Made by a program: the position numbers and the translations under genes. Positions 41,275-56,420 of a stretch of 61,232 nucleotides of DNA are shown piece after piece. The DNA is from Candidatus Latescibacterota bacterium (lineage in GTDB: Bacteria > Latescibacterota > UBA2968 > UBA8231), in NCBI GenBank assembly GCA_029941315.1, contig JAPYQE010000007.1, positions 1-61,232 on the forward strand, in the 5' to 3' direction. The notes beneath the pieces are model-generated. The model was not told where the DNA came from. It ran no database searches and worked only from the letters and a program-made list of their open reading frames with translations. Position 1 is the stretch's first letter, and every line of letters starts with the position of its first letter.

Positions 41275-42507
41275 ATGACACCCGATCAGATGCTGACACC
41301 CGAAGAAGCCCGGTCCATCATACTTGAACACATCCAGATCCTCGGCCCCGAACGCGTCTCGCTGCTCGATGCCGATGGTCGCGTGCTAGCCGGCGATATC
41401 CTCGCCCAACGCGACAACCCGCCCTACGACAACTCGGCGATGGACGGCTACGCGGTGCGTCACCAGGACGTGGCCCAGGCCAGCGCCGACGCACCCGTAG
41501 CCCTGGCAGTCGTCGAAGACATCCCCGCCGGCACCGTACCGCAAAAGCAAGTCGGCCCGGGGCAAAGCAGCCGCATTATGACCGGTGCCCCGGTACCCGC
41601 CGGCGCCGATACCATCGTGCCCGTCGAAGACACCCGCGGCGAGGGCGAAAGTATAGAGGTCCTTGAAGTCGAGGAGCCCGGTGAACACATCCGCCACGCC
41701 GGCGAGGATATGCGCGCTGGCCAGCCGATCCTCACCACCGGCACCGAATGCGGCCCCGGCGAACTGGCCGTGCTCGCCGCCGTGCAGCAGAGCTTCGTCT
41801 CGGTCTACCGCCGGCCCCGCATCGCCATTCTCTCCACCGGCGATGAACTCGTCGAAATCGAAGAGACGCCCGGCGAGGGCCAGATCGTCAACAGCAACAC
41901 CACAGCCCTGGCCGCCTTTTGCCACGCGCACGGCGCCGAACCTATCATGTTGCCCATCGCCCGAGATGACGAGGCCGTGATCCGCGCCACCATTATATCC
42001 GCGCTCAAAGCCGATTTCGCTGTCTCGTCGGGCGGCGTCTCGGTCGGCAAATACGACTTCGTCAAAAAGGTCCTCGACGACCTCGGCGCGGAAACCATCT
42101 TCTGGCGGGTGGCGATGAAACCGGGCAAACCGCTGGTTTTCTGCACCGTCGACGGCATTCCTTATTTTGGCCTGCCGGGCAACCCAGTCTCCAGCATGAT
42201 ATCCTTCCTACAATTCGTGCGCCCGGCCATCCGCAAAGCTTCCGGTTATCGCGAAGCCGACTGGCCCCTACCCGAGGCCCGCGCGCAGATCGAACACCCA
42301 GTAGACAATGACGGCGGCCGCCGCCAGTATATGCGCGCCACCCTCAATTATCGCGACGGCCTGCTATTCGCCCGCACCGCCAAGAGCCAGGGCTCGCACA
42401 TGATCAGTTCGATGATCGGCGCCAATGGTTTCGTCGTACTCGAACCCAAGCAACAGGCCGCCGCCGGCGACACCGTCACCGTGCAAATCGTCGGCCCCAT
42501 CTTCTAA
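41275..42507 (+). CDS. moeA: molybdopterin molybdotransferase
   Basis: PPYDNSAMDGYAV, SGGVSVGKYDFV and GLPGNPVSS. Confidence 0.9.
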   Translation: MTPDQMLTPEEARSIILEHIQILGPERVSLLDADGRVLAGDILAQRDNPPYDNSAMDGYAVRHQDVAQASADAPVALAVVEDIPAGTVPQKQVGPGQSSRIMTGAPVPAGADTIVPVEDTRGEGESIEVLEVEEPGEHIRHAGEDMRAGQPILTTGTECGPGELAVLAAVQQSFVSVYRRPRIAILSTGDELVEIEETPGEGQIVNSNTTALAAFCHAHGAEPIMLPIARDDEAVIRATIISALKADFAVSSGGVSVGKYDFVKKVLDDLGAETIFWRVAMKPGKPLVFCTVDGIPYFGLPGNPVSSMISFLQFVRPAIRKASGYREADWPLPEARAQIEHPVDNDGGRRQYMRATLNYRDGLLFARTAKSQGSHMISSMIGANGFVVLEPKQQAAAGDTVTVQIVGPIF

Positions 42508-42520
42508 ACGGGGAAAATAA

Positions 42521-43531
42521 TTGAACCGCCCACCCGCCGAATCCAAACTCGTCCCGGTCGCGCAACTACGCTCCTTCGCCGCCGCTTGCCTCAAAGCCGC
42601 CGGCCTGCGCTCCGAGCACGCCGATCAGCTAGCCGAGCTCTTATCTAATTCCGACCTGCGCGGCGTGCGCTCGCACGGCACCCGCGCCATCGCCGGCTAT
42701 TGCACCCGCCTCCGCGACGGCGGCAATAACCCCAACCCAGAGCTGCAAATCCTGCAAGATACACCCACTACCGTGCTCGTCGACGGCGACGGCGGGCTGG
42801 GCTACGCACCGATGATGCAGGCCACCGAAATGGCCATCGCTAAGGCCAAGGAGCACAAAGTGGCCCTTGGCGCTGCCTGCCACCACGGTCACTACGGCTC
42901 GGCCGGTCACTATGTGCGCCGCGCGATGGAAGAAGGTTGCACCGCCTTCTCGGTCCAGGGCGCACACTCCACCAGATTCGGCGAAGGCGGCGGCAACAAA
43001 GGCCAGCAATCCGCCTATTGGGGCAACCCCCCGATCTCCTTCGGTTTTCCCGCCGAAGAAGAACCGCCGCTGATCCTCGACGCGGCGACCTGTATCATGG
43101 CCGACTACCACCGCGGCCCCGAATACGACGCGCTACAAGAGCTCATCCCACCCGCCTTCTTCAAATCGATGGGCTATACCGGTTCGGCCCTGGCTCTGGG
43201 TGGCGCCTTTGTCGGCCAAAACAGCGACCGGGCCCGTGCAATCGCCGAACAGTGGCCACGCGCCAACAATGGCGGTCTAATTATCGTAATGGACATCGGC
43301 GCCTTCGCCCCACCCGAGGCCTTCCGCGAAGGCATCGACAACCTGGTGCGCGGCGTCCGCGAAACGATGGAACCCGTAAAAGGCTACCAAGAGGCCACAC
43401 TGCCCGGCACAATCGAAGACCGCAATTCAAAAGAATACACACAAACTGGCGTCCCGATGGCCCGCGAAGATCTCGAGAGACTCACCGCCTGCGGCCATGA
43501 GTTCGGTATTACAGCGGAGTGGGAACAATGA
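42521..43531 (+). CDS. Ldh_2-family (malate/L-lactate/sulfolactate-type) dehydrogenase
   Basis: TTG start. LRGVRSHGTRAIAGY..GGLGYAP..HHGHYGSAGHY fits the pattern of the Ldh_2 family. Confidence 0.7.
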   Translation: MNRPPAESKLVPVAQLRSFAAACLKAAGLRSEHADQLAELLSNSDLRGVRSHGTRAIAGYCTRLRDGGNNPNPELQILQDTPTTVLVDGDGGLGYAPMMQATEMAIAKAKEHKVALGAACHHGHYGSAGHYVRRAMEEGCTAFSVQGAHSTRFGEGGGNKGQQSAYWGNPPISFGFPAEEEPPLILDAATCIMADYHRGPEYDALQELIPPAFFKSMGYTGSALALGGAFVGQNSDRARAIAEQWPRANNGGLIIVMDIGAFAPPEAFREGIDNLVRGVRETMEPVKGYQEATLPGTIEDRNSKEYTQTGVPMAREDLERLTACGHEFGITAEWEQ

Positions 43532-44196
43532 TCGACCCCGTGCAACGCTTAGTCTTCCGCGGCCAAATCCATCCGGGTCGCGAGGAAACCTTACAGGCCG
43601 CCCTGCCCAACTTGCAAACCATCCTGGCCCAACGCGTCGCAGCCGACGATATCCTCACGCTGAGCCTTTTCATGTGGCACCAGCATATTTTCCTCTACTA
43701 CGAGTGCCCCGGCGACCCTATCGCGCCAATTGACCTGGTCGGCGATATCGATTCCACCCTGGCCCTATCCACCTCGCGCGTTTGGGCACCAATGATGGAT
43801 ATCTTCCACTTCAACCGCCCACAAAGTCTCGAACACTGGCGCCGCGACACGCCCCCTGAGGCCTGCACTGCGCGCGTGGTCTACCTGCGGCCCGAAATGG
43901 TCAGCAGCTACATCTTTTTACACTATCAAATGCAAGAAGAAACACCGGGTGCCGGCGATAAATACGGCCAGATTTCGCTACACGAGAACCTGCTATTCTT
44001 TTATATGGAGCAACCGGCGACGAATGAAGCCGCCCAGCACGAGGGCCAACTCAAGACTACGCATACGCCGCCGAACTGGCACGAGGTGATGTTTCCACAT
44101 TTTCAGCCTTGGGATGATTTAGAGGAAAAAGGGGCATGGAAGTTGGCGGAAGGAAGTCAGTTGTGGCGGCCGATTGAGTTGCTTTGTAGCGTTTGA
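43528..44196 (+). CDS. hypothetical protein; two halves weakly resemble rhamnose-mutarotase/EthD-like alpha+beta barrels
   Basis: ATG at 43528 overlaps the upstream stop (ATGA). The internal duplication impression (..LSLFMWHQHIFLYYE.. / ..ISLHENLLFFYME..) is weak evidence only. Confidence 0.4.
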   Translation: MIDPVQRLVFRGQIHPGREETLQAALPNLQTILAQRVAADDILTLSLFMWHQHIFLYYECPGDPIAPIDLVGDIDSTLALSTSRVWAPMMDIFHFNRPQSLEHWRRDTPPEACTARVVYLRPEMVSSYIFLHYQMQEETPGAGDKYGQISLHENLLFFYMEQPATNEAAQHEGQLKTTHTPPNWHEVMFPHFQPWDDLEEKGAWKLAEGSQLWRPIELLCSV

Positions 44197-44219
44197 AAAC
44201 GGTAATGCGGGCAGCAGAC

Positions 44220-44353
44220 GGACCGTTGCGGGAGATTCCCCTTCGCTCATTCTCGCCTCACTTCCTGTGAGGCTCCGAGGGCTATCCTCAGATTTCACTT
44301 CCTGTGAAATCTGGGACAGCAAGCCGCTCAGGGGGAATCCCCCGCAACGGTCC
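44220..44353. repeat. copy 1 of a two-copy structured inverted-repeat element (candidate ncRNA or miniature element)
   Basis: A 22-bp closing inverted repeat with one mismatch encloses three hairpins: GCCTCAC-TTCCT-GTGAGGC, GAGG-GCTAT-CCTC and AGATTTCAC-TTCCT-GTGAAATCT. The core is homologous to the reverse complement of 51957-52047. Confidence 0.8.
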
Positions 44354-44768
44354 TCGGTCGTTTGAGTAATAATCGGTAAATTACCCTACGACATTCGAGA
44401 AAAGAAAAATTGAAACCCCAACTAATTTGGTTAATCCATAATTTTGCAGAAAAGAGAAGGACTCAGTTAGGTAATATTTATAAGCGATAGATTACCTTGA
44501 ATGTTCTTACCCTCCGCCGGAGCGGAGGCTCGGGGGTCTACCGTAGGGCAAAGCCTCCCAAAGGCCATCGGTTGAATTTTATCGCCCCGCTCCCGCTGCC
44601 CGTTAAGGTGGCTCTGCCACACCACCTAAGCGACCCTCCGCAAGCCTATAGGGCCGCCTTAGCTTTGCCCGAAGGCAGAGCCCTGAGCCGCAGCGTGAGA
44701 CGCACTCCGATATATGCACACAAAGGAAAAACACACACCTTAACCACCTCACAACAAAGGAGCTCACC

Positions 44769-45566
44769 ATGAGCCTATTTTCACTCGCAGGAAAAGTAGC
44801 CCTCGTCACCGGCGCCGGTCGCGGCATAGGCCGCGGCGTCGCCGAAGGCATGGGCGCCGCAGGAGCTACCGTCGTCTGTTCCGCCCGCACCCGCAGCCAA
44901 CTCGACGAAGCCGTCACCGCCATCGAAGCCGCCGGCGGCAAAGCCATAGCGCTCGAAATGGATATGTCAGACCTCGCGGCGATGGACGCCGGCATTGCCT
45001 CTATCACCGAGCAATGCGGACCGATCGACATCCTCTTCAACAACGCCGGCATGAACATCCGCCAGCCCATCGTCGAAGTCACCGAAGAAAATTACGACCA
45101 GATCATGTCGGTCAACCTCAAAGGGCTTTATTTTCTTAGCCAAAAAGTCGGCCAACAGATGATCGACCGCGGCGAGGGCGGCAAGATCATCAATATCGGC
45201 TCGTTGACTACCGGCTACGCCCTAGCCAAGGTTTCGGTCTACACCGCCACCAAGGGCGCCGTCGGCCAACTCACCAAAGGCCAAGCCGTCGAATTCGGCC
45301 CGCACAATATCCAGGTCAACGCTATTTGCCCCGGATTCATCCTCACTTCGTTAACCGAAAAAATGTGGGCCGACGCGAATATGCGCACCTGGGGCGAACA
45401 GCGCGTAGCGCTCAATCGCCTGGGCACGCCTGAGGATCTGGTCGGCACCGCCGTCTACCTCGCCGCGTCCGCCTCCGACTACGTCAGCGGGCAATGCATT
45501 TATGTCGACGGCGGTTTTATGGCCGGCGACGATTGGCCCTTGCCGCCGGTGGCTGCCAGCAAATAA
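44769..45566 (+). CDS. SDR-family oxidoreductase (KduD/gluconate-5-dehydrogenase-like)
   Basis: AGGAG Shine-Dalgarno 7 nt upstream. LVTGAGRGIGRG, NNAG and YTATKGAV. Confidence 0.88.
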   Translation: MSLFSLAGKVALVTGAGRGIGRGVAEGMGAAGATVVCSARTRSQLDEAVTAIEAAGGKAIALEMDMSDLAAMDAGIASITEQCGPIDILFNNAGMNIRQPIVEVTEENYDQIMSVNLKGLYFLSQKVGQQMIDRGEGGKIINIGSLTTGYALAKVSVYTATKGAVGQLTKGQAVEFGPHNIQVNAICPGFILTSLTEKMWADANMRTWGEQRVALNRLGTPEDLVGTAVYLAASASDYVSGQCIYVDGGFMAGDDWPLPPVAASK

Positions 45567-45593
45567 CCACCCGAGCTATCTCGTTAACAAGAC

Positions 45594-45630
45594 AAAGGTC
45601 CGGTCAATATTGGCCGGACCTTTGTTGTTG
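45594..45630 (+). terminator. intrinsic terminator after the SDR gene
   Basis: AAAGGTCCGGTCA-ATAT-TGGCCGGACCTTT forms a stem of about 13 bp including one G-T, followed by GTTGTTG. Confidence 0.6.
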
Positions 45631-45693
45631 TCGGTAGCACGAGCCGACCTAGGTCACCAGCAGGATTTTGCCCTTTATGTAAGGAGTTCCACC

Positions 45694-46275
45694 ATCAAGA
45701 AAGTCACCCTCATCAAACAACGCCGGCTGCTGGACGCCTTTTTTAAAGTCGACGAAGCCGTGCTGCGCCACGAACGCTTCGACGGCTCGTTGAGCCCCGA
45801 GTTAAACCGCCTCTGCTTGGAACGGGGGGACGGCGTCACCGCGCTGCTCTACCAACCGCAAAGCGACAGTCTGGTGCTGGTGCGCCAGTTCCGCTACCCG
45901 GCCTGGGTGCGGCAGGGGCCAGGCTGGATACTCGAAACCGTCGCCGGCATGCTCGACAAGGCCGAAGCCCCGCAAGAGACGATGCGCCGCGAGATTCTCG
46001 AAGAAACAGGATACCAAGTCTGCAACCTGCAACACGTCTCCACTTTTTATCTTACCCCGGGCGGCTCTTCCGAGCGCATATTTCTCTACTATGGCGAAGT
46101 TGCAGTGGACGAGCGCCGCGAACCAGGCGGCGGGTTAGCAGACGAGAACGAGGATATCGAGGTCATCGAAATCGCCGTCGATGACGCCTTTGCCGCCGTC
46201 GACCAGGGCGAAATTGTCGACGCCAAGACCCTAATCGCCCTGATGTGGTTCAGAAACCGTCGGCTGCAGACTTGA
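45694..46275 (+). CDS. NUDIX hydrolase (ADP-ribose/NDP-sugar pyrophosphatase-like); start codon uncertain
   Basis: Nudix box GMLDKAEAPQETMRREILEETGY. The upstream in-frame ATG (45502) lies inside the SDR gene and before the terminator. The only start-like codon with a good Shine-Dalgarno (AAGGAG, 7-nt spacer) is ATC at 45694. Confidence 0.7.
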   Translation: MKKVTLIKQRRLLDAFFKVDEAVLRHERFDGSLSPELNRLCLERGDGVTALLYQPQSDSLVLVRQFRYPAWVRQGPGWILETVAGMLDKAEAPQETMRREILEETGYQVCNLQHVSTFYLTPGGSSERIFLYYGEVAVDERREPGGGLADENEDIEVIEIAVDDAFAAVDQGEIVDAKTLIALMWFRNRRLQT

Positions 46276-46349
46276 AAGCCGGGCGGCTTTGCAATATTAT
46301 TCATAACGCCAAAGAACATATCCCCACCTATTAGCCAGGAGTTATCGGC

Positions 46350-48317
<1,968 letters not shown>

Positions 48318-48337
48318 CATCGCCTTACCAAGTAGTT

Positions 48338-48380
48338 GGGCCGGCGGGAAGCATTCTATCCCGCCGACCCTTTTTCTTTT
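48338..48380 (+). terminator. intrinsic terminator after acs
   Basis: GGGCCGGCGGGA-loop-TCCCGCCGACCC followed by TTTTTCTTTT. The next gene's Shine-Dalgarno (GGAG) follows immediately. Confidence 0.65.
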
Positions 48381-48388
48381 GGAGACCT

Positions 48389-50347
48389 ATGAACATTCGC
48401 TTTGACTCCACATTGACCCGCGATCTCGCACACGCCACCAGCCGCGAATGGCTCGAAAGCAATGGCCTCGGCGGCTGGTCCTCCTCGACAATCAGCGGCG
48501 CCCATACCCGGCGCTACCACGGCCTGTTGGTCGTCGCCACACATCCGCCGGTCGGCCGAGTCGTGCTGCTCTCGCACCTCGACGAAACACTGGTTTTCGA
48601 CCATAATCGCCTCGAATTGGGCTGCGGTATCTTCCCCGGCGCCGTGCACCCGCAAGGACACCAATCGCTGCATTCCTTCGCGCTCAGCCCCGTGCCGACC
48701 TGGACCTACGCCAACAGCGATTTCACCTTGCACAAACGCCTGGCGATGCTCGACGGCGAGCACACCGTCGTCGTCTGCTACGAACTCGAACGCGCCCCCG
48801 GCCCGATGTACCTCGAACTGCGCCCCTTCTTTGCCGGTCGCGACTACCACTACCTGATGCAAGCCAACGACGGCGTCGCACAAACCGCCGACTTCGCCGC
48901 CGAGACGCTATCCTACCGCCCCTATCCCGACCAGCCCACTGCCCATATCAACGCCGCCGCTGCAAACTGGCAAGCCGCACCCGACTGGCACTACAATTTC
49001 CAGTACCCGCGCGAAGAAGAACGTGGGCTCGACACCAGCGAGGACCTCTTCGCCCCGGGCCATTTGAGCATCCGACTCGAACCCGGCAGCACCTTGGGGG
49101 TCGCTATCTCTATCGCACCTTGCGACCGCGACCCCGTTGCACTGCTCGAAGCCGAGATCACCCGCCGACAAAACATCTCCCGGCCTGCCGCAATCGCCGC
49201 CGATCCACTGCTGAGCCAATTGGCCATCGCCGCCGATCAGTTCCTCGTCCGCCGCGACGGCAACCTGCACACCATCCTCGCCGGCTACCACTGGTTCACC
49301 GACTGGGGCCGCGACACCATGATCGCCCTGCCCGGCATCTGCCTGGCCACCGGGCGCTACGCCGAAGCCAAGAATATCTTCCGCGCCTTCGCCGCCCATA
49401 TCAGCGAAGGCATGATCCCCAACCGCTTTCCCGACGTCGGCGAAGAGCCCGAATACAATACCGTCGACGCGACATTGTGGTTTTTCACCGCGCTCTACAA
49501 ATACCTGCAACAGACCCGCGATTACGCCTTTGCCCGCGAACTGTGGCCGGCTTTGCAAGATATCGTCGCCTGGCACCAGCGCGGCACTCGTTATCAAATC
49601 AAAGTAGATACAGACGGCCTGCTCAGCGCCGGCGAAGAGGGCGTGCAACTGACCTGGATGGACGCCAAAGTCGGCGACTGGGTCGTGACACCGCGCATCG
49701 GCAAACCCGTCGAGATCAACGCGCTCTGGTATAACGCGTTGAAAATAATGGGCCATTTGGCTACAGAATTCGCCGAAGAAACCGACTACGACACAAAAGC
49801 CGAGCGCGTGCACCACGCATTCAACCAGCAATTCTGGAACGAAGAATCCGGCTGCCTCTACGACCTCGTCACCCCCCAAGGCCCCGACCCCGCAATCCGC
49901 CCCAACCAACTCTTCGCCCTCTCACTGCCCTTTCCCCTGATCGAAGGAGAACGGGCGCGGCGCATGATAGCCGTCGCCGACGAGCACCTGCTCACCCCCC
50001 GCGGCCTGCGTAGCCTTTCACCGCAAGATCCCGCCTACCGCTCCCATTATCACGGCGACCCTTGGTCCCGCGACGGCGCCTACCACCAAGGCATCGTCTG
50101 GGGCTGGCTGATCGGTCCATTTATCACCGCGCTGTGCCGCGTGCACGGCGACGAGGGCCGCCAACGCGGTCGAGCTATTATCGAAGGCTTTGCGGACCAT
50201 TTACAGGAGGCGGGCTTGGGCTCGGTCTCCGAAATATTCGACGCCGAACCGCCTTTCGCCCCGCGCGGTTGCGTCGCGCAAGCCTGGAGCGTGGCCGAGT
50301 TATTGCGCGCGGGCGTCGAAGATGTGTTGGGGGAAAGCTCGCAATAA
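48389..50347 (+). CDS. amylo-alpha-1,6-glucosidase family glycogen-debranching enzyme (GDE_C type)
   Basis: TRRYHGLLV, GYHWFTDWGRDTMIALPG, LTWMDAKVGDWVVTPRIGKPVEINALWYNAL and AYHQGIVWGWLIGPF. Confidence 0.88.
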   Translation: MNIRFDSTLTRDLAHATSREWLESNGLGGWSSSTISGAHTRRYHGLLVVATHPPVGRVVLLSHLDETLVFDHNRLELGCGIFPGAVHPQGHQSLHSFALSPVPTWTYANSDFTLHKRLAMLDGEHTVVVCYELERAPGPMYLELRPFFAGRDYHYLMQANDGVAQTADFAAETLSYRPYPDQPTAHINAAAANWQAAPDWHYNFQYPREEERGLDTSEDLFAPGHLSIRLEPGSTLGVAISIAPCDRDPVALLEAEITRRQNISRPAAIAADPLLSQLAIAADQFLVRRDGNLHTILAGYHWFTDWGRDTMIALPGICLATGRYAEAKNIFRAFAAHISEGMIPNRFPDVGEEPEYNTVDATLWFFTALYKYLQQTRDYAFARELWPALQDIVAWHQRGTRYQIKVDTDGLLSAGEEGVQLTWMDAKVGDWVVTPRIGKPVEINALWYNALKIMGHLATEFAEETDYDTKAERVHHAFNQQFWNEESGCLYDLVTPQGPDPAIRPNQLFALSLPFPLIEGERARRMIAVADEHLLTPRGLRSLSPQDPAYRSHYHGDPWSRDGAYHQGIVWGWLIGPFITALCRVHGDEGRQRGRAIIEGFADHLQEAGLGSVSEIFDAEPPFAPRGCVAQAWSVAELLRAGVEDVLGESSQ

Positions 50348-51358: not shown

Positions 51359-51907
51359 ATGGGCACGCCCATGACCGCCAAAGCTTCCGTCTTCATCGCC
51401 ACCAGCCTCGACGGTTTTATCGCCCGCCCAAACGGCGACCTCGACTGGCTGGACCAAGCCAATACCACGGTCACCGAAGGCGAGGATTGCGGCTACACAG
51501 CTTTTATGGACACCGTCGACATCCTAATAATGGGCCGCAACACCTATGAAAAAGTCCTCACCTTCGGCCCCTGGCCCTACGAAAAACCCGTCATCGTACT
51601 CAGCCGCAACCCCATCGATATCCCCACCGAACTGACCACCGTCACACACTCTTCCAAAACACCGCAAGCCCTGCATACCAGACTCTCCGCTGAAGGAGCC
51701 AAACGCCTCTATATCGACGGCGGGATCACTATCCAACGCTTCCTCGCCTCAGGTCTGATCACCGACCTAACCATCACCCTCATACCCGTAATCCTTGGCG
51801 AAGGCATCCCCCTTTTCAGCCCCCAACAACAAGACATTTCTCTGACCCACACCGAAACCATATCTTATCCCTTCGGTTTTGTGCAACTCAAATACAAGAC
51901 CTTATAA
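51359..51907 (+). CDS. dihydrofolate-reductase-like (RibD C-terminal domain) family protein
   Basis: VFIATSLDGFIARPNGDLDWL, ILIMGRNTYE and LYIDGG. Confidence 0.8.
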   Translation: MGTPMTAKASVFIATSLDGFIARPNGDLDWLDQANTTVTEGEDCGYTAFMDTVDILIMGRNTYEKVLTFGPWPYEKPVIVLSRNPIDIPTELTTVTHSSKTPQALHTRLSAEGAKRLYIDGGITIQRFLASGLITDLTITLIPVILGEGIPLFSPQQQDISLTHTETISYPFGFVQLKYKTL

Positions 51908-51935
51908 ACCTTCTTTTTATAGCGAATACACCGGA

Positions 51936-52068
51936 GGTCAGATCGAGGAATTTTACTGAGCGGCTTTGCTGTCCCCTGGAGCCACAGGATGTGGCGTAGG
52001 GGGATAGCCCTCGGAAGGCCACAGGAAGTGGCCTGAGAATGAGCGAAGTAAAATCCCTCGATCTGACC
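51936..52068. repeat. copy 2, inverted orientation, of the structured inverted-repeat element
   Basis: A 21-bp closing inverted repeat with one mismatch. Hairpins GCCAC-AGGAT-GTGGC, GGGG-ATAGC-CCTC and GGCCAC-AGGAA-GTGGCC. Conserved flanks CTGAGCGGCTTTGCTGTCCCC and GAGAATGAGCGAA. Confidence 0.8.
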
Positions 52069-52086
52069 GTCCCACACGGAGCACCC

Positions 52087-53448
52087 ATGCAAAAACCCAA
52101 TATCATCCTAATCAACTGCGACGACCTAGGCTACGGCGACCTAGCCTGCTACGGTTCCCCCGTCAATAAAACCCCCGCCCTCGACCGCATGGCCAAAGAA
52201 GGCATCCGCTTCACCGATTTCTACATGGCCTCCCCCGTCTGCTCGCCGTCTAGAGGCGCGATGCTCACCGGCTGTTACCCGCCGCGCATCGGCTTCGGCT
52301 CCTTCGACGGCAAATGGGTGCTCTTCCCCGGCATGCCCATCGGCCTCAACCCCAGCGAGACCACCACCGCGACCTTGCTCAAAGAAGCCGGTTACGCCAC
52401 CAAGATCGTCGGCAAATGGCACTGCGGCGACCAACCCGAATTCCTGCCGACACGCCACGGTTTCGATTCCTACTACGGCATCCCCTACTCCAACGACATG
52501 GGTCGGCAAAAGGAAGACGACGTCTACCCGCCGTTGCCGCTTTTGCGCGACGAAGAAGTGATACAGGCCCAGCCCGATCAACGCGGCATCACCGAGCGCT
52601 ATGTCGAAGAATCCGTGCGCTTTATCCGCGAAAACAAAGAAAAACCCTTCTTCCTCTACTTCGCCCATATGCACGTGCACCTGCCGCATTATCCGCCCGC
52701 GCGCTTCGTCGCCGAATCGGAAAACGGCGTCTACGGGGCGGCGGTCGCCGCCATCGACTGGGCCGCCGACGTGCTCTTCGACGAATTGCAAAGCCTCGGC
52801 CTAGACGACAACACCCTAGTCATCTTCACCAGCGACAACGGCTCCCGTGCACGCGACGAAGGCGGCAGCAACGCCCCATTGCGCAGTACCAAGGGCACTA
52901 CCTGGGAAGGCGGCCAACGCGTGCCCTGCATCATGCGTTGGCCCGGCGTGATCCCCGCCGGCACCGAGTGCAACGAGCTCGCGCTGTCGATGGACCTGCA
53001 TCCCACCCTGGCCGCTATCACCGGCGCTACCTTGCCCTCCGACCGCACCATCGACGGCAAGGACATTCGCCCGCTCATGCAGGCCGAAAAAGACGCAGAA
53101 AGCCCGCACGAGTCCTTTTTCTATTATAAACGCAATAGCATCGAAGCCGTGCGCAGCGGCCAATGGAAGTTGCATATCCGCAAGGACGACGAAGAGATAC
53201 AGCAGCTCTACAACCTCGAAAGCGACATCGGCGAAACCGAAAACCTCTACGAGCAGCACCCCGAAATCGTCGCCGATCTGCAAATAAAAATCGACGCCTG
53301 CCGCCGCGAACTCGGCGATGACGCCACGGGAATTTCTGGCGCGAACGTCCGCCCCATCGGCCGCGTCGAAAACCCCGACACCCTGACCCACTACGACCCC
53401 GAGCATCCTTATATGATCGCCCTCTACGATCTCAAGGAACGCGGTTAA
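52087..53448 (+). CDS. arylsulfatase-family sulfatase, no signal peptide
   Basis: Start moved to MQKPNIILINCDDLGYGD. CSPSRGAMLTG, GKWHCG and TSDNG. The upstream part of the listed ORF lies inside repeat copy 2. Confidence 0.9.
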   Translation: MQKPNIILINCDDLGYGDLACYGSPVNKTPALDRMAKEGIRFTDFYMASPVCSPSRGAMLTGCYPPRIGFGSFDGKWVLFPGMPIGLNPSETTTATLLKEAGYATKIVGKWHCGDQPEFLPTRHGFDSYYGIPYSNDMGRQKEDDVYPPLPLLRDEEVIQAQPDQRGITERYVEESVRFIRENKEKPFFLYFAHMHVHLPHYPPARFVAESENGVYGAAVAAIDWAADVLFDELQSLGLDDNTLVIFTSDNGSRARDEGGSNAPLRSTKGTTWEGGQRVPCIMRWPGVIPAGTECNELALSMDLHPTLAAITGATLPSDRTIDGKDIRPLMQAEKDAESPHESFFYYKRNSIEAVRSGQWKLHIRKDDEEIQQLYNLESDIGETENLYEQHPEIVADLQIKIDACRRELGDDATGISGANVRPIGRVENPDTLTHYDPEHPYMIALYDLKERG

Positions 53449-55912: not shown

Positions 55913-56420
55913 GTGAACCGCATCCTCCTAATCGGTCCCAGTGGCGCCAGCAAATTGCATTTTTTGTGCCAACTCGGCGCGGCGCTCGAGCTACCGGTAA
56001 TCCACCTCGACTAATACTACTTCGTCCCGGTGAGGGTATAACCTGACCGGGACGAGTGGGGCCAAAAACAGCAGTAATTGCTCGCACAAGACCGCTGGGT
56101 AATGGGCGGCTACCGCCGCCGCACGCTGGAGCTGCGTTTACAGCGTACGGATACGGTGTCTTTCCTCGACTTCGCCTTACCACTTGTCTAATGGGCATCT
56201 TCGGGCGCCGATTAGAAATCGCTTCCGATCCTCGCCTTGACCTCGGCGAAGGCAGTCCCGAGCAGGTGAGATGGGGACTGCTCGCCGTACTCTATTAGTA
56301 TTTTCGCTGTTATCATCCGCAGTAGCTCAGGCGATATGCGATGCAGAAACGACAAAGCAGGTCTTCATCCTGCACTCGCGTGCTGAAATGGGCAAATACT
56401 TATCCCCCACCGACAAATAG
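55913..56420 (+). pseudogene. decayed P-loop kinase gene (topology-modulation/adenylate-kinase-like) with multiple in-frame stops and a frameshift
   Basis: The single-frame translation reads VNRILLIGPSGASKLHFLCQLGAALELPVIHLD*YYFVPVRV*PDRDEWGQKQQ*LLAQDRWVMGGYRRRTLELRLQRTDTVSFLDFALPLV*WASSGAD*KS.. It is collinear with intact family members, has a degenerate Walker A motif, and a later segment (EGSPEQVRWGLL) is in another frame. Confidence 0.7.

Follow-up and report, generated by a model that had tools for sequence, protein, structure and literature searches.

Introduction

A 61,232-nucleotide (nt) stretch of a Candidatus Latescibacterota genome (contig JAPYQE010000007.1, assembly GCA_029941315.1), referred to below in its whole length as the window, carries in two of its intergenic regions a structured element whose stems differ between the copies and yet remain paired, which raises the question of what kind of element this is and whether its structure is maintained as RNA or as DNA. 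A sequence-only reading of the window had described the two copies, with their conserved single strands and their differing but paired stems, and both its coordinates and its alignment are confirmed here. Copies 1 and 2 are members of an undescribed family of ~135-nt structured intergenic elements, restricted to one clade of uncultured marine bacteria whose bins carry the label Gemmatimonadota or Latescibacterota. The family is well supported and was previously uncatalogued; it is new, yet of a known general kind, that of conserved structured intergenic elements or candidate noncoding RNAs.

Results

Fold of the two window copies

Both copies form the same three-way junction, in which a closing helix (P1, ~22 bp with one defect) encloses two hairpins (P2 and P3). 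Copy 1 (44220-44353) and the reverse complement of 51936-52068 have the identical motifs CTTCGCTCATTCTC, TCCGAGGGCTATCC and GGGACAGCAA(A)GCCGCTCAG in common, and in the alignment the helices between these motifs differ in sequence and keep their pairing; an exact search of the window for the three core motifs returned no site besides copies 1 and 2. The folding energies are -85.6 kcal/mol for copy 1 and -79.9 kcal/mol for copy 2, with 0 of 200 shuffles as stable in either case (z scores in Table 1), and the reverse strands fold equally well or slightly better. An inverted-repeat search of the window assigned to each copy 22-nt inverted arms, 95% complementary and 89-90 nt apart, which together with one unrelated neighbouring element are the strongest inverted repeats present.

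P2 is a hairpin with a 3-nt bulge and an NTCCT-type loop, its apical pairs covarying at six of seven positions. P3 resembles it, in direct orientation (CAC-NTCCT-GTG), and occurs in two subtypes, of which the window holds one each: subtype A (copy 1) is a continuous 10-bp stem (CAGATTTCAC), and subtype B (copy 2) has the arrangement CCCC / CTAC / GCCAC with an internal loop. The P3 base of copy 1 contains a conserved A.C juxtaposition, and the CGCTC(A) motif of the 5' junction strand recurs in the 3' junction strand AAGCCGCTC of the same copy. Of the two sequences originally taken for loops, TTCCT is one indeed, whereas GCTAT turned out to be the 5' strand of the P3 base (GCU-A-UCC pairing with GGA-C-AGC).

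Covariation and anatomy of the family

That covariation implies selection on structure had been argued from the two window copies, and the argument was borne out in an 18-sequence model alignment with 35 modelled pairs, set against 500 shuffles and against controls in which partners were slid by 1-3 columns. Standard pairs filled 91.5% of the cells, as opposed to 74.6% in the shuffled and 36-48% in the slid alignments; double-sided changes were found in 23 of the 35 pairs, and the covariation score was 0.432 against 0.158, the observed values being reached by 0 of 500 shuffles. Compensatory change is heavy in all three helices, and the P2 stems include GCCTCAC, AGGCCAC, GCCGCAC, GGAACAC, GTGGCAC, GGATCAC and GCCGACC, each with its own complement. 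Covariation alone is nevertheless no proof of selection on RNA, because template switching at DNA palindromes or gene conversion also restores pairing, and DNA-level exchange is seen in this family, both as a loop inversion in one locus (L017; L numbers denote individual loci) and as cores homogenised within one genome.

The nearly invariant parts are the junction strands, the TCC bulge, the P3 base and the TCCT of both loops; the 5' junction strand CGCTCAT is nearly invariant in canonical copies and is replaced in the variants L015 and L007/L020. P1 keeps a length of 20-23 bp and a conserved foot of 2-3 bp (GA, bulged C or T, GG ... CC-TC), which the span given for copy 1 takes in (5' GA, bulged C, GG...; 3' ...CC-TC). 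Its outer half is freely variable and is the least conserved part of the element. Its inner half, similar to the core segment CCGAGGGCTATCC, is semi-conserved, many copies having CGAGGGTAT.CCC / GGG.ATACCCTCG. The closing stems, once regarded as largely different between the copies, are each self-complementary, as described, but are diverged homologues with a semi-conserved inner part rather than unrelated sequences. The window copies do each have one mismatch 8-9 nt from the inner end, but its position is not fixed across the family.

Variants bear an extra hairpin in the 5' junction (L014, L015, L062), a C(UUCG)G-capped stem in place of P2 on the forward strand (L007/L020), a deletion of P3 (L032/L033), a decayed P1 (L019, L021) or, in the otherwise intact L017, an exact inversion of the P2 loop. 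Several further interpretations of the anatomy were tried and dropped. An alternative helix between the P1 3' arm and the core segment CCGAGGGCUAUCC, as in a switch, was significant (z -2.3 to -4.5) in only about half of the copies, not in those of the window, and was always far weaker than P1, so that a switch was given up as a general mechanism. A conserved peptide is contradicted by P3 subtype indels that are not multiples of three, and at copy 2 the ATG in GAGAATGAGCG stands in the sulfatase frame only by position. Resemblances to hammerhead, K-turn, boxA and dif, examined by eye, were not sustained, and insertion into pre-existing palindromes finds no family of empty P1-like hairpins in the window.

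Members and distribution

Two of the checks proposed in the sequence-only reading, a search for further copies and an Rfam scan, were run. A pattern scan of 185,579 species genomes returned five loci in three metagenome-assembled genomes (MAGs), namely 'Gemmatimonadetes bacterium' RS822 and SI037_bin186 and 'Latescibacterota' XB_MAG105; a scan of Joint Genome Institute (JGI) metagenomes added 16 more real loci and one chance match inside glyA, and orthologous loci in related populations were added by walking out from neighbouring proteins. In total there are ~15 independent loci, and for several of them orthologues are known; the MAGs and metagenomes that contain them carry the label Gemmatimonadetes or Latescibacteria. 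A covariance model (CM), R1, was built from 12 copies and scores members at 46-155 bits; run over the window and 62 fetched loci, it revealed no copy beyond those reported. Each sampled genome holds at least 2-3 copies, and only a few. Five contigs end inside the element (L012, L033, L049, L063, L064), as expected because repeats break assemblies. At least eight assemblies, made from different samples and among them a hydrothermal-vent metagenome (GBIDBA), contain near-identical (99.7-99.8%) counterparts of the window region, and the organism is therefore widespread.

The earlier impression that this is not a known RNA family was upheld: at gathering thresholds, the 4227 covariance models of Rfam 15 gave no match on either strand of the whole window, and at E<=10 only spurious microRNA matches of the mir-42 and mir-296 type appeared around copy 1, which cover the bare long stem and reach 26 bits against a gathering score of 70. 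Two scans of viral contigs returned only chance pattern matches, all rejected by the CM; blastn found no relative in plasmids and phages, and a full-text literature search found no description of the family.

Table 1. Coordinates of the two window copies and of their parts, with the basis of each assignment (ORFs, open reading frames).
Feature	Coordinates	Strand	Sequence or remark	Basis
Copy 1, whole element	44217..44355	+		sequence; fold (z -9.4); CM R1 match (152.5 bits, E 2e-35)
Copy 1, P1 5' arm	44220..44243	+	GGACCGTTGCGGG-A-GATTCCCCTT; A.C mismatch at 44233	fold, inverted-repeat search
Copy 1, 5' junction strand	44244..44250	+	CGCTCAT	alignment
Copy 1, P2	44251..44280	+	TCTC-GCCTCAC-[TTCCT]-GTGAGGC-TCC-GAGG	fold, covariation analysis
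Copy 1, P3 (subtype A)	44281..44320	+	GCT-A-TCC-T-CAGATTTCAC-[TTCCT]-GTGAAATCTG-GGA-C-AGC	fold, covariation analysis
Copy 1, 3' junction strand	44321..44329	+	AAGCCGCTC	fold, alignment
Copy 1, P1 3' arm	44330..44353	+	AGGGGGAATC-C-CCCGCAACGGTCC	fold, inverted-repeat search
Copy 2, whole element	51933..52071	-		sequence; fold (z -8.4); CM match (143.2 bits); ORFs
Copy 2, P1 5' arm	52047..52068	-	GGTCAGATCGAGG-G-ATTTTACT; one G.T	fold, inverted-repeat search
Copy 2, P2	52009..52038	-	TCTC-AGGCCAC-[TTCCT]-GTGGCCT-TCC-GAGG	fold, alignment
Copy 2, P3 (subtype B)	51968..52008	-	GCT-A-TCCCC / CTAC / GCCAC-[ATCCT]-GTGGC / TCCA / GGGGA-C-AGC; internal loop	fold, alignment
Copy 2, P1 3' arm	51936..51957	-	AGTAAAATTCCTCGATCTGACC	fold, inverted-repeat search

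Inheritance, loss and exchange

At the cupin locus, the element is kept in L001 and L011, whose proteins are 70% identical, and in L062-L064 (82%); the P1 arms are recognisably homologous there and the spacer to the start codon is unalignable. In one relative, whose cupin is 66% identical, the intergenic region measures 128 nt and lacks the element. At the copy 1 locus, where the synteny MoeA - Ldh_2 - rhamnose-mutarotase-like - SDR - NUDIX - acetyl-CoA synthetase - glycogen-debranching-like (41275-50347; L023-L040) holds down to 50% protein identity, the element is present in relatives whose rhamnose-mutarotase-like protein is at least 82% identical, is absent at 64% identity, where a 573-nt spacer of unrelated sequence is found, and at 50% identity there are 70 nt only. 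Sulfatase orthologues at 74-81% identity stand in other contexts and without the element, and presence or absence varies also between other relatives (L037-L040, L065). Comparison of the window with L031 shows the junction motifs kept, with P1 arms that differ at ~10 of 22 positions and still pair.

Core and stem have different histories. In the ERZ24794640 population, all three known copies (L031, L049, L062, on contigs of similar coverage) share a derived, internally compensated P3 base (GGGGCGGTCT ... GGGACCGCAA replacing GGGCTATCC ... GGGACAGCAA), and their P1 arms resemble those of their own positional orthologues. The orthologous loci L001 and L011 carry different P3 subtypes, L031/L049 have a P2 that is remodelled relative to the window, and the same A/T loop polymorphism segregates in both copies of the window lineage. 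From these observations and the loop inversion of L017 it follows that P1 is inherited vertically with its locus and that the core is exchanged among paralogues by DNA-level recombination. Since the core is the same across genomes, which within-genome conversion does not explain, the pattern also points to purifying selection.

Genomic context

All copies are intergenic, about half of the loci placing the element between divergent genes. Where neighbours are co-directional, as at copy 2 and L020, it lies 17-30 nt past the upstream stop codon (24 nt for copy 1, 30 for L020, 17 for L010, 29 for copy 2) and 19-55 nt ahead of the next start codon. Copy 2, on the minus strand, is flanked by two plus-strand genes, the DHFR-like one with its stop at 51907 and the sulfatase gene, whose ATG (52087) follows after 19 nt. 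A Pfam search of 20 neighbouring ORFs identified unrelated functions and no common partner gene; the verified neighbours comprise cupin, ornithine cyclodeaminase, GltX, amidohydrolase, SDR, GFO/IDH/MocA, sulfatase, DEAD helicase, GDSL lipase, solute-binding protein, sulfotransferase and M81 peptidase. No transposase, recombinase/integrase or reverse transcriptase was found among the genes beside any copy. An orientation census by longest ORFs was discarded, as the C-rich strand lacks stop codons, and only Pfam-verified neighbours were used. By eye, the upstream flanks show a weak TA-rich motif without a consistent -35 box, and in L010, L017 and L022 a UUCG hairpin and then a T-run shortly follow the element in the forward direction.

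On the plus strand, the junction of copy 2 contains an ATG (GAGAATGAGCG, 52039) that opens an ORF in frame into the sulfatase, extending it by 16 codons. The start at 52087, preceded by GGAG, is likely the true one, judging from homologues of 452-453 amino acids, and some database sulfatase entries of 463-474 amino acids may carry such N-terminal extensions.

Strand polarity

Between RNA and DNA cruciform, the alternative posed in the sequence-only reading, the mismatches do not decide, G.U-type and A.C-type ones being about equally frequent, and they identify no RNA strand. The 18-sequence alignment contains 36 G.U cells on the forward strand, of which 15 derive from one invariant U.G, 17 A.C cells (G.U on the reverse strand), to which the invariant A.C of the P3 base, outside the model, is to be added, and 34 other mismatches; the P3-base A.C is A-U in L002 and G-C in L031. 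Summed over 12 copies, the folding energy is -913 kcal/mol forward and -945 kcal/mol reverse, and RNAalifold gives -20.4 forward and -24.5 reverse.

A third observation concerns strand composition. In 9 of 10 long loci the forward sense of the element coincides with the strand that is G-rich over +/-5 kb, irrespective of how the verified genes are directed, and it does so in the flanks of all four short contigs; with orthologous sets counted once, 12 of 13 loci lie on the G-rich strand (two-sided binomial p ~0.003). Copy 1 is the only exception, the plus strand of the window being C-rich throughout (skew ~-0.1), and the 150 nt on either side of it are locally G-rich; in most loci the 150 nt nearest to the element are more C-poor than the background. 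This polarity fits forward transcription co-directional with replication, or action as single-stranded DNA (ssDNA) on the lagging-strand template, and it argues against the reverse strand as the functional RNA, despite its AGGA loops and purine-rich junctions.

The GC skew itself is strong and independent of gene direction, the plus strand of the window being C-rich also where genes lie on the minus strand. Its extreme reaches -0.45 in 200-nt windows such as 51600-51800, and related loci (L001-L020) show +0.1 to +0.2 over 10 kb. The C-rich strand gives long spurious ORFs, which mislead gene calling based on ORF length.

Neighbouring elements and repeats

A second, unrelated long-stem element (44522-44694, plus strand) follows copy 1 at a distance of 170 nt and precedes the SDR start (44769) by ~75 nt. 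Its 33-nt imperfect inverted arms are 79% complementary and enclose 107 nt, with a fold z score of only -2.1; it is conserved with compensatory changes in L031 and L032, has no Rfam match, and in the 64%-identity relative L034 has a positional counterpart whose arms differ, being 26 nt long, 92% complementary and separated by 184 nt. The element is a candidate leader RNA for the SDR operon.

Sequence adjoining the element seems prone to tandem duplication. The AT-rich stretch 3' of copy 1 (44360-44500) is expanded in L031 (3350-3620) by ~45-nt tandem units (ACTCAAGCTGATTGAATTA...), and L062 (2806-3000) has three tandem copies of the element's 3' flank together with the final 5 nt of P1 (GGACCTCGGCGATCGC...), a TATATGTAGGTGAGGTAAT unit being repeated as well. 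Two palindromes of the window were also recorded. The near-perfect 36-nt palindrome GACAAAGGTCCGGTCAATATTGGCCGGACCTTTGTT at 45591-45626, in the gap from the SDR stop (45566) to the NUDIX gene, has GGTCCGG in common with the P1 of L001 and may be terminator-like; the window contains no other simple long hairpin. An imperfect one, TCGTCCCGGTGAGGGTA / TAACCTGACCGGGACGA at 56022-56055, has an inner end, GGTGAGGGTA, that resembles the P1 inner part CGAGGGTAT.

Discussion

A possible co-transcribed structural module

Our favoured reading, which we hold tentatively and as possible rather than probable, is that the element is a co-transcribed structural module of untranslated regions (UTRs) and intercistronic spacers that acts through its fold. 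It would be transcribed within the UTRs or intercistronic spacers of the neighbouring genes, and P1 would provide a duplex of two turns, which is the length on which RNase III-type enzymes and exonuclease barriers rely; the folded RNA would thereby define where mRNAs end or let the cistrons on either side differ in stability, with the conserved junction and loops as contact sites for a putative partner. The element lies within transcription units, keeps the length of P1 and has been retained under selection, the last being supported by its persistence upstream of cupin orthologues that are 70-82% identical, ahead of a spacer that is unrelated. The optional extra hairpins and the C(UUCG)G-capped P2 of L007/L020 are features typical of RNA families and also support this reading, as do the UUCG hairpin and T-run that come after the element in L010, L017 and L022.

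Several points weigh against it. Cleavage of P1 by RNase III would be an analogy drawn from length alone, and a role as a mere stable hairpin leaves the invariant junction and loop sequence unexplained. Relative to their co-directional neighbours, copy 1 and L020 are in forward and copy 2 in reverse orientation, and prediction scans found no convincing sigma-70-like promoter or intrinsic terminator at either window copy. Neither wobble counts nor folding energy show an asymmetry that would assign a strand; a structure selected only as RNA should show an excess of G.U pairs, and neither strand does.

Less likely readings: small RNA or folded single-stranded DNA

Two other readings appear unlikely, to a similar degree. 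According to the first, the element is a free-standing small RNA gene of the forward strand, whose ~90-nt two-hairpin core would be released from a long processing stem and would act in trans, for example with its pyrimidine-rich UCCU loops and CUCAUUCUC strand pairing with Shine-Dalgarno regions, or bound by a protein. Location of the forward strand on the G-rich, leading-type strand at 12 of 13 independent loci is what would be expected of highly expressed stable RNAs, and the adjacent 150 nt, even more G/T-rich and C-poor on that strand, fit heavy forward transcription; a 'GCTA(A/G/T)' or 'GGTAAT' motif stands 9-21 nt ahead of P1 in most loci, several paralogues evolve in concert like multi-copy RNA genes, and the loops are invariant in UCCU. 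However, a consistent -35 box and a terminator are lacking, and at copy 2 only 19 nt separate P1 from the sulfatase start, so that a forward promoter would fall inside the sulfatase coding region. The absence of a forward-strand G.U excess also speaks against a small RNA, as do the elements that are otherwise intact with an inverted P2 loop (L017) or with UUCG in place of it (L007/L020).

The second would have the element act as folded ssDNA on the strand exposed in lagging-strand synthesis, as a T-shaped hairpin recognised by a strand-specific enzyme, for example an HUH/Y1-type transposase or a recombinase. It would then be a repeat that is, or once was, mobile, in the manner of IS200/IS605-derived elements or of REP with RAYT. 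Its orientation tracks strand composition and not gene direction, with verified neighbours on both strands; mismatch types are symmetric, and the direct-orientation hairpins P2 and P3 are like the left- and right-end hairpins of IS200/IS605. DNA-level events are on record (the L017 loop inversion, the P3 swap between L001 and L011, the derived P3 base shared by the three copies of one genome), and the presence/absence variation among relatives, the contig breaks inside the element and the tandem duplications just 3' of it in L031 and L062 would fit as well. Against this reading stand the lack of transposase, recombinase and reverse transcriptase genes beside any copy, the few copies per genome, the absence of target-site duplications and of a clean insertion boundary, and the missing family of 'empty' P1-like palindromes in the window. 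Orthologous copies with compensated stems, kept over 70-82% neighbour identity, are unlike decaying dead insertions; no relatives emerged from the viral contigs, plasmids and phages searched, and the strand rule, with its one exception in copy 1, rests on 13 loci.

A variant of the DNA reading, which we regard as less likely still, is that the element may be a chromosomal signal, a T-shaped three-way hairpin that folds on the strand exposed as ssDNA at the replication fork and is read by a putative strand-specific enzyme; this mechanism would also be what retains it on the G-rich strand, and its copies would be homogenised.

Improbable readings: the reverse strand, and a neutral repeat

It is improbable that the functional RNA is the reverse strand, which presents two AGGA(U/A)-loop hairpins (CAC-AGGAU-GUG) ~37 nt apart and two more GGA motifs, and which would, in 5' leaders like the sulfatase one, resemble CsrA/RsmA-type sites of high affinity. 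The repeat motifs of CsrB are CAGGAUG and CAGGAAG. On the reverse strand, nearly all copies have AGGAA, AGGAU or AGGAUU loops, the unpaired regions are purine-rich and folding is slightly stronger; in the reverse sense, co-directional starts follow copy 2 after 19 nt and L005 after 32 nt, and the P3-base A.C becomes a mid-helix G.U alternating with A-U (L002) and G-C (L031). At copy 1 and L020, however, such an RNA would be antisense to both neighbours, its transcription would run head-on to replication at 12 of 13 loci, its GGA hairpins are more than 60 nt from the Shine-Dalgarno sequence and do not overlap it, and the invariant forward U.G (pair 42/123) becomes A.C; no csrA occurs in the 440 kb examined, an uninformative result.

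The least probable reading is that of a neutral intergenic repeat without function, its pairing kept by template-switch palindrome correction and its core by gene conversion: the loop inversion and the concerted evolution show that such DNA processes act here, mismatch types are symmetric and decayed copies exist (P3 deleted in L032/L033, P1 degenerate in L019 and L021), but ~30 junction and loop positions are invariant where flanking proteins are only 70% identical and adjacent spacers unalignable, within-genome conversion cannot hold one sequence across separate lineages, and P1 arms 90 nt apart are far for simple template-switch correction.

Comparison with known systems

ERIC, REP and intergenic repeats like them come nearest to the family in behaviour, with their pattern reversed here, in that a non-palindromic core is conserved and the stem drifts. 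ERIC/IRU elements are ~127-bp imperfect palindromes of enterobacteria and vibrios with orientation-dependent effects on mRNA stability. They are alike in size, in a strictly intergenic position inside transcription units, in occurring in either orientation and in few to many copies, in conservation between species beyond the flanks, in compensated stems and in insertion variants at fixed internal sites. They share no sequence similarity with the present family, and ERIC forms one long imperfect hairpin, whereas here two hairpins in direct repeat sit on a three-way junction, the non-palindromic core is invariant and the closing stem diverges; we know of no report of strand-composition polarity or within-genome homogenisation for ERIC. 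REP, BIME and REPIN sequences are similarly intergenic, structured and co-transcribed, persist at orthologous sites and evolve in concert, and in an established model REP folds as a single strand that an HUH enzyme recognises. REP units, however, are hairpins of 20-40 nt that begin with a conserved GTAG at the 5' side, number tens to hundreds per genome and are associated with a RAYT gene. The present family follows no GTAG rule, has few copies and has no transposase gene beside any of them; in REPINs it is the stem that is conserved and the loop that varies, the opposite of what is seen here.

RNase III signals (phage T7 R sites, rRNA stems) resemble P1 as duplexes of about two turns, often with one internal defect, which flank or separate functional RNAs and whose stem sequence is free to covary; the T7 sites are simple hairpins with an internal loop, and rRNA stems enclose kilobase RNAs rather than a 90-nt core. 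The parvovirus inverted terminal repeat (ITR) is likewise a long stem capped by two small hairpins, and IS200/IS605 elements, whose insertion is polarised with respect to the lagging-strand template, carry two similar direct-orientation hairpins on one strand; unlike either, the copies described here have no Rep or TnpA gene beside them and no known cleavage motifs, and are chromosomal, non-terminal, few and conserved at orthologous sites. CsrB/RsmZ and CsrA-bound leaders are matched by the two AGGA-loop hairpins of the reverse strand, which correspond to CAGGA(U/A)G, but these are only two loop sites and lie inside a closed three-way junction with a long stem.

Integron attC sites are comparable as 60-140-nt imperfect inverted repeats with structure over sequence, extrahelical bases, a possibly branched apex and activity as a folded single strand with replication polarity; here, by contrast, the interior is conserved, the stem varies, and the neighbours are syntenic housekeeping or metabolic genes. 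An attC identity was rejected, the R''/R' boxes (RYYYAAC ... GTTRRRY) being absent and the P1 foot reading GA-C-GG ... CC-TC, with neither cassette arrays nor a shared orientation: the window copies are inverted, 7.6 kb apart, around syntenic metabolic genes. Other candidates were likewise set aside. A riboswitch or cis leader does not agree with downstream genes as unrelated as cupin, ornithine cyclodeaminase, GltX, amidohydrolase, SDR and GFO/IDH/MocA, nor with copy 2 and L015, which are not upstream of a co-oriented gene; no terminator was found, and a P1 of 22-26 bp leaves no room for ligand-dependent switching. A miniature inverted-repeat transposable element (MITE) is contradicted by an outer P1 that is the least conserved part, by the lack of flanking direct repeats and by orthologues that keep pairing through changes in both arms. 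For a retron msr-msd, no reverse transcriptase domain was present in any neighbouring gene, and for a bacterial Y RNA, there was neither an Rfam Y_RNA/YrlA match nor a TROVE/rsr gene beside any copy.

Conclusion

The family shows enough covariation to seed an Rfam-type family, and it comes from a poorly known marine lineage. It presents an unusual combination of an invariant core within a freely covarying two-turn stem, a core evolving in concert while the stem stays bound to its locus, and an orientation that follows strand composition, which makes it a good test case for distinguishing RNA-level from DNA-level selection on structure. If the element is an RNA module, it would point to an unknown processing or binding factor; if it is a DNA signal, it would be a new kind of chromosomal site and, were it to act as folded ssDNA, a bacterial counterpart of the structured DNA sites of parvoviral ITR or attC type, tied to no known mobile element.

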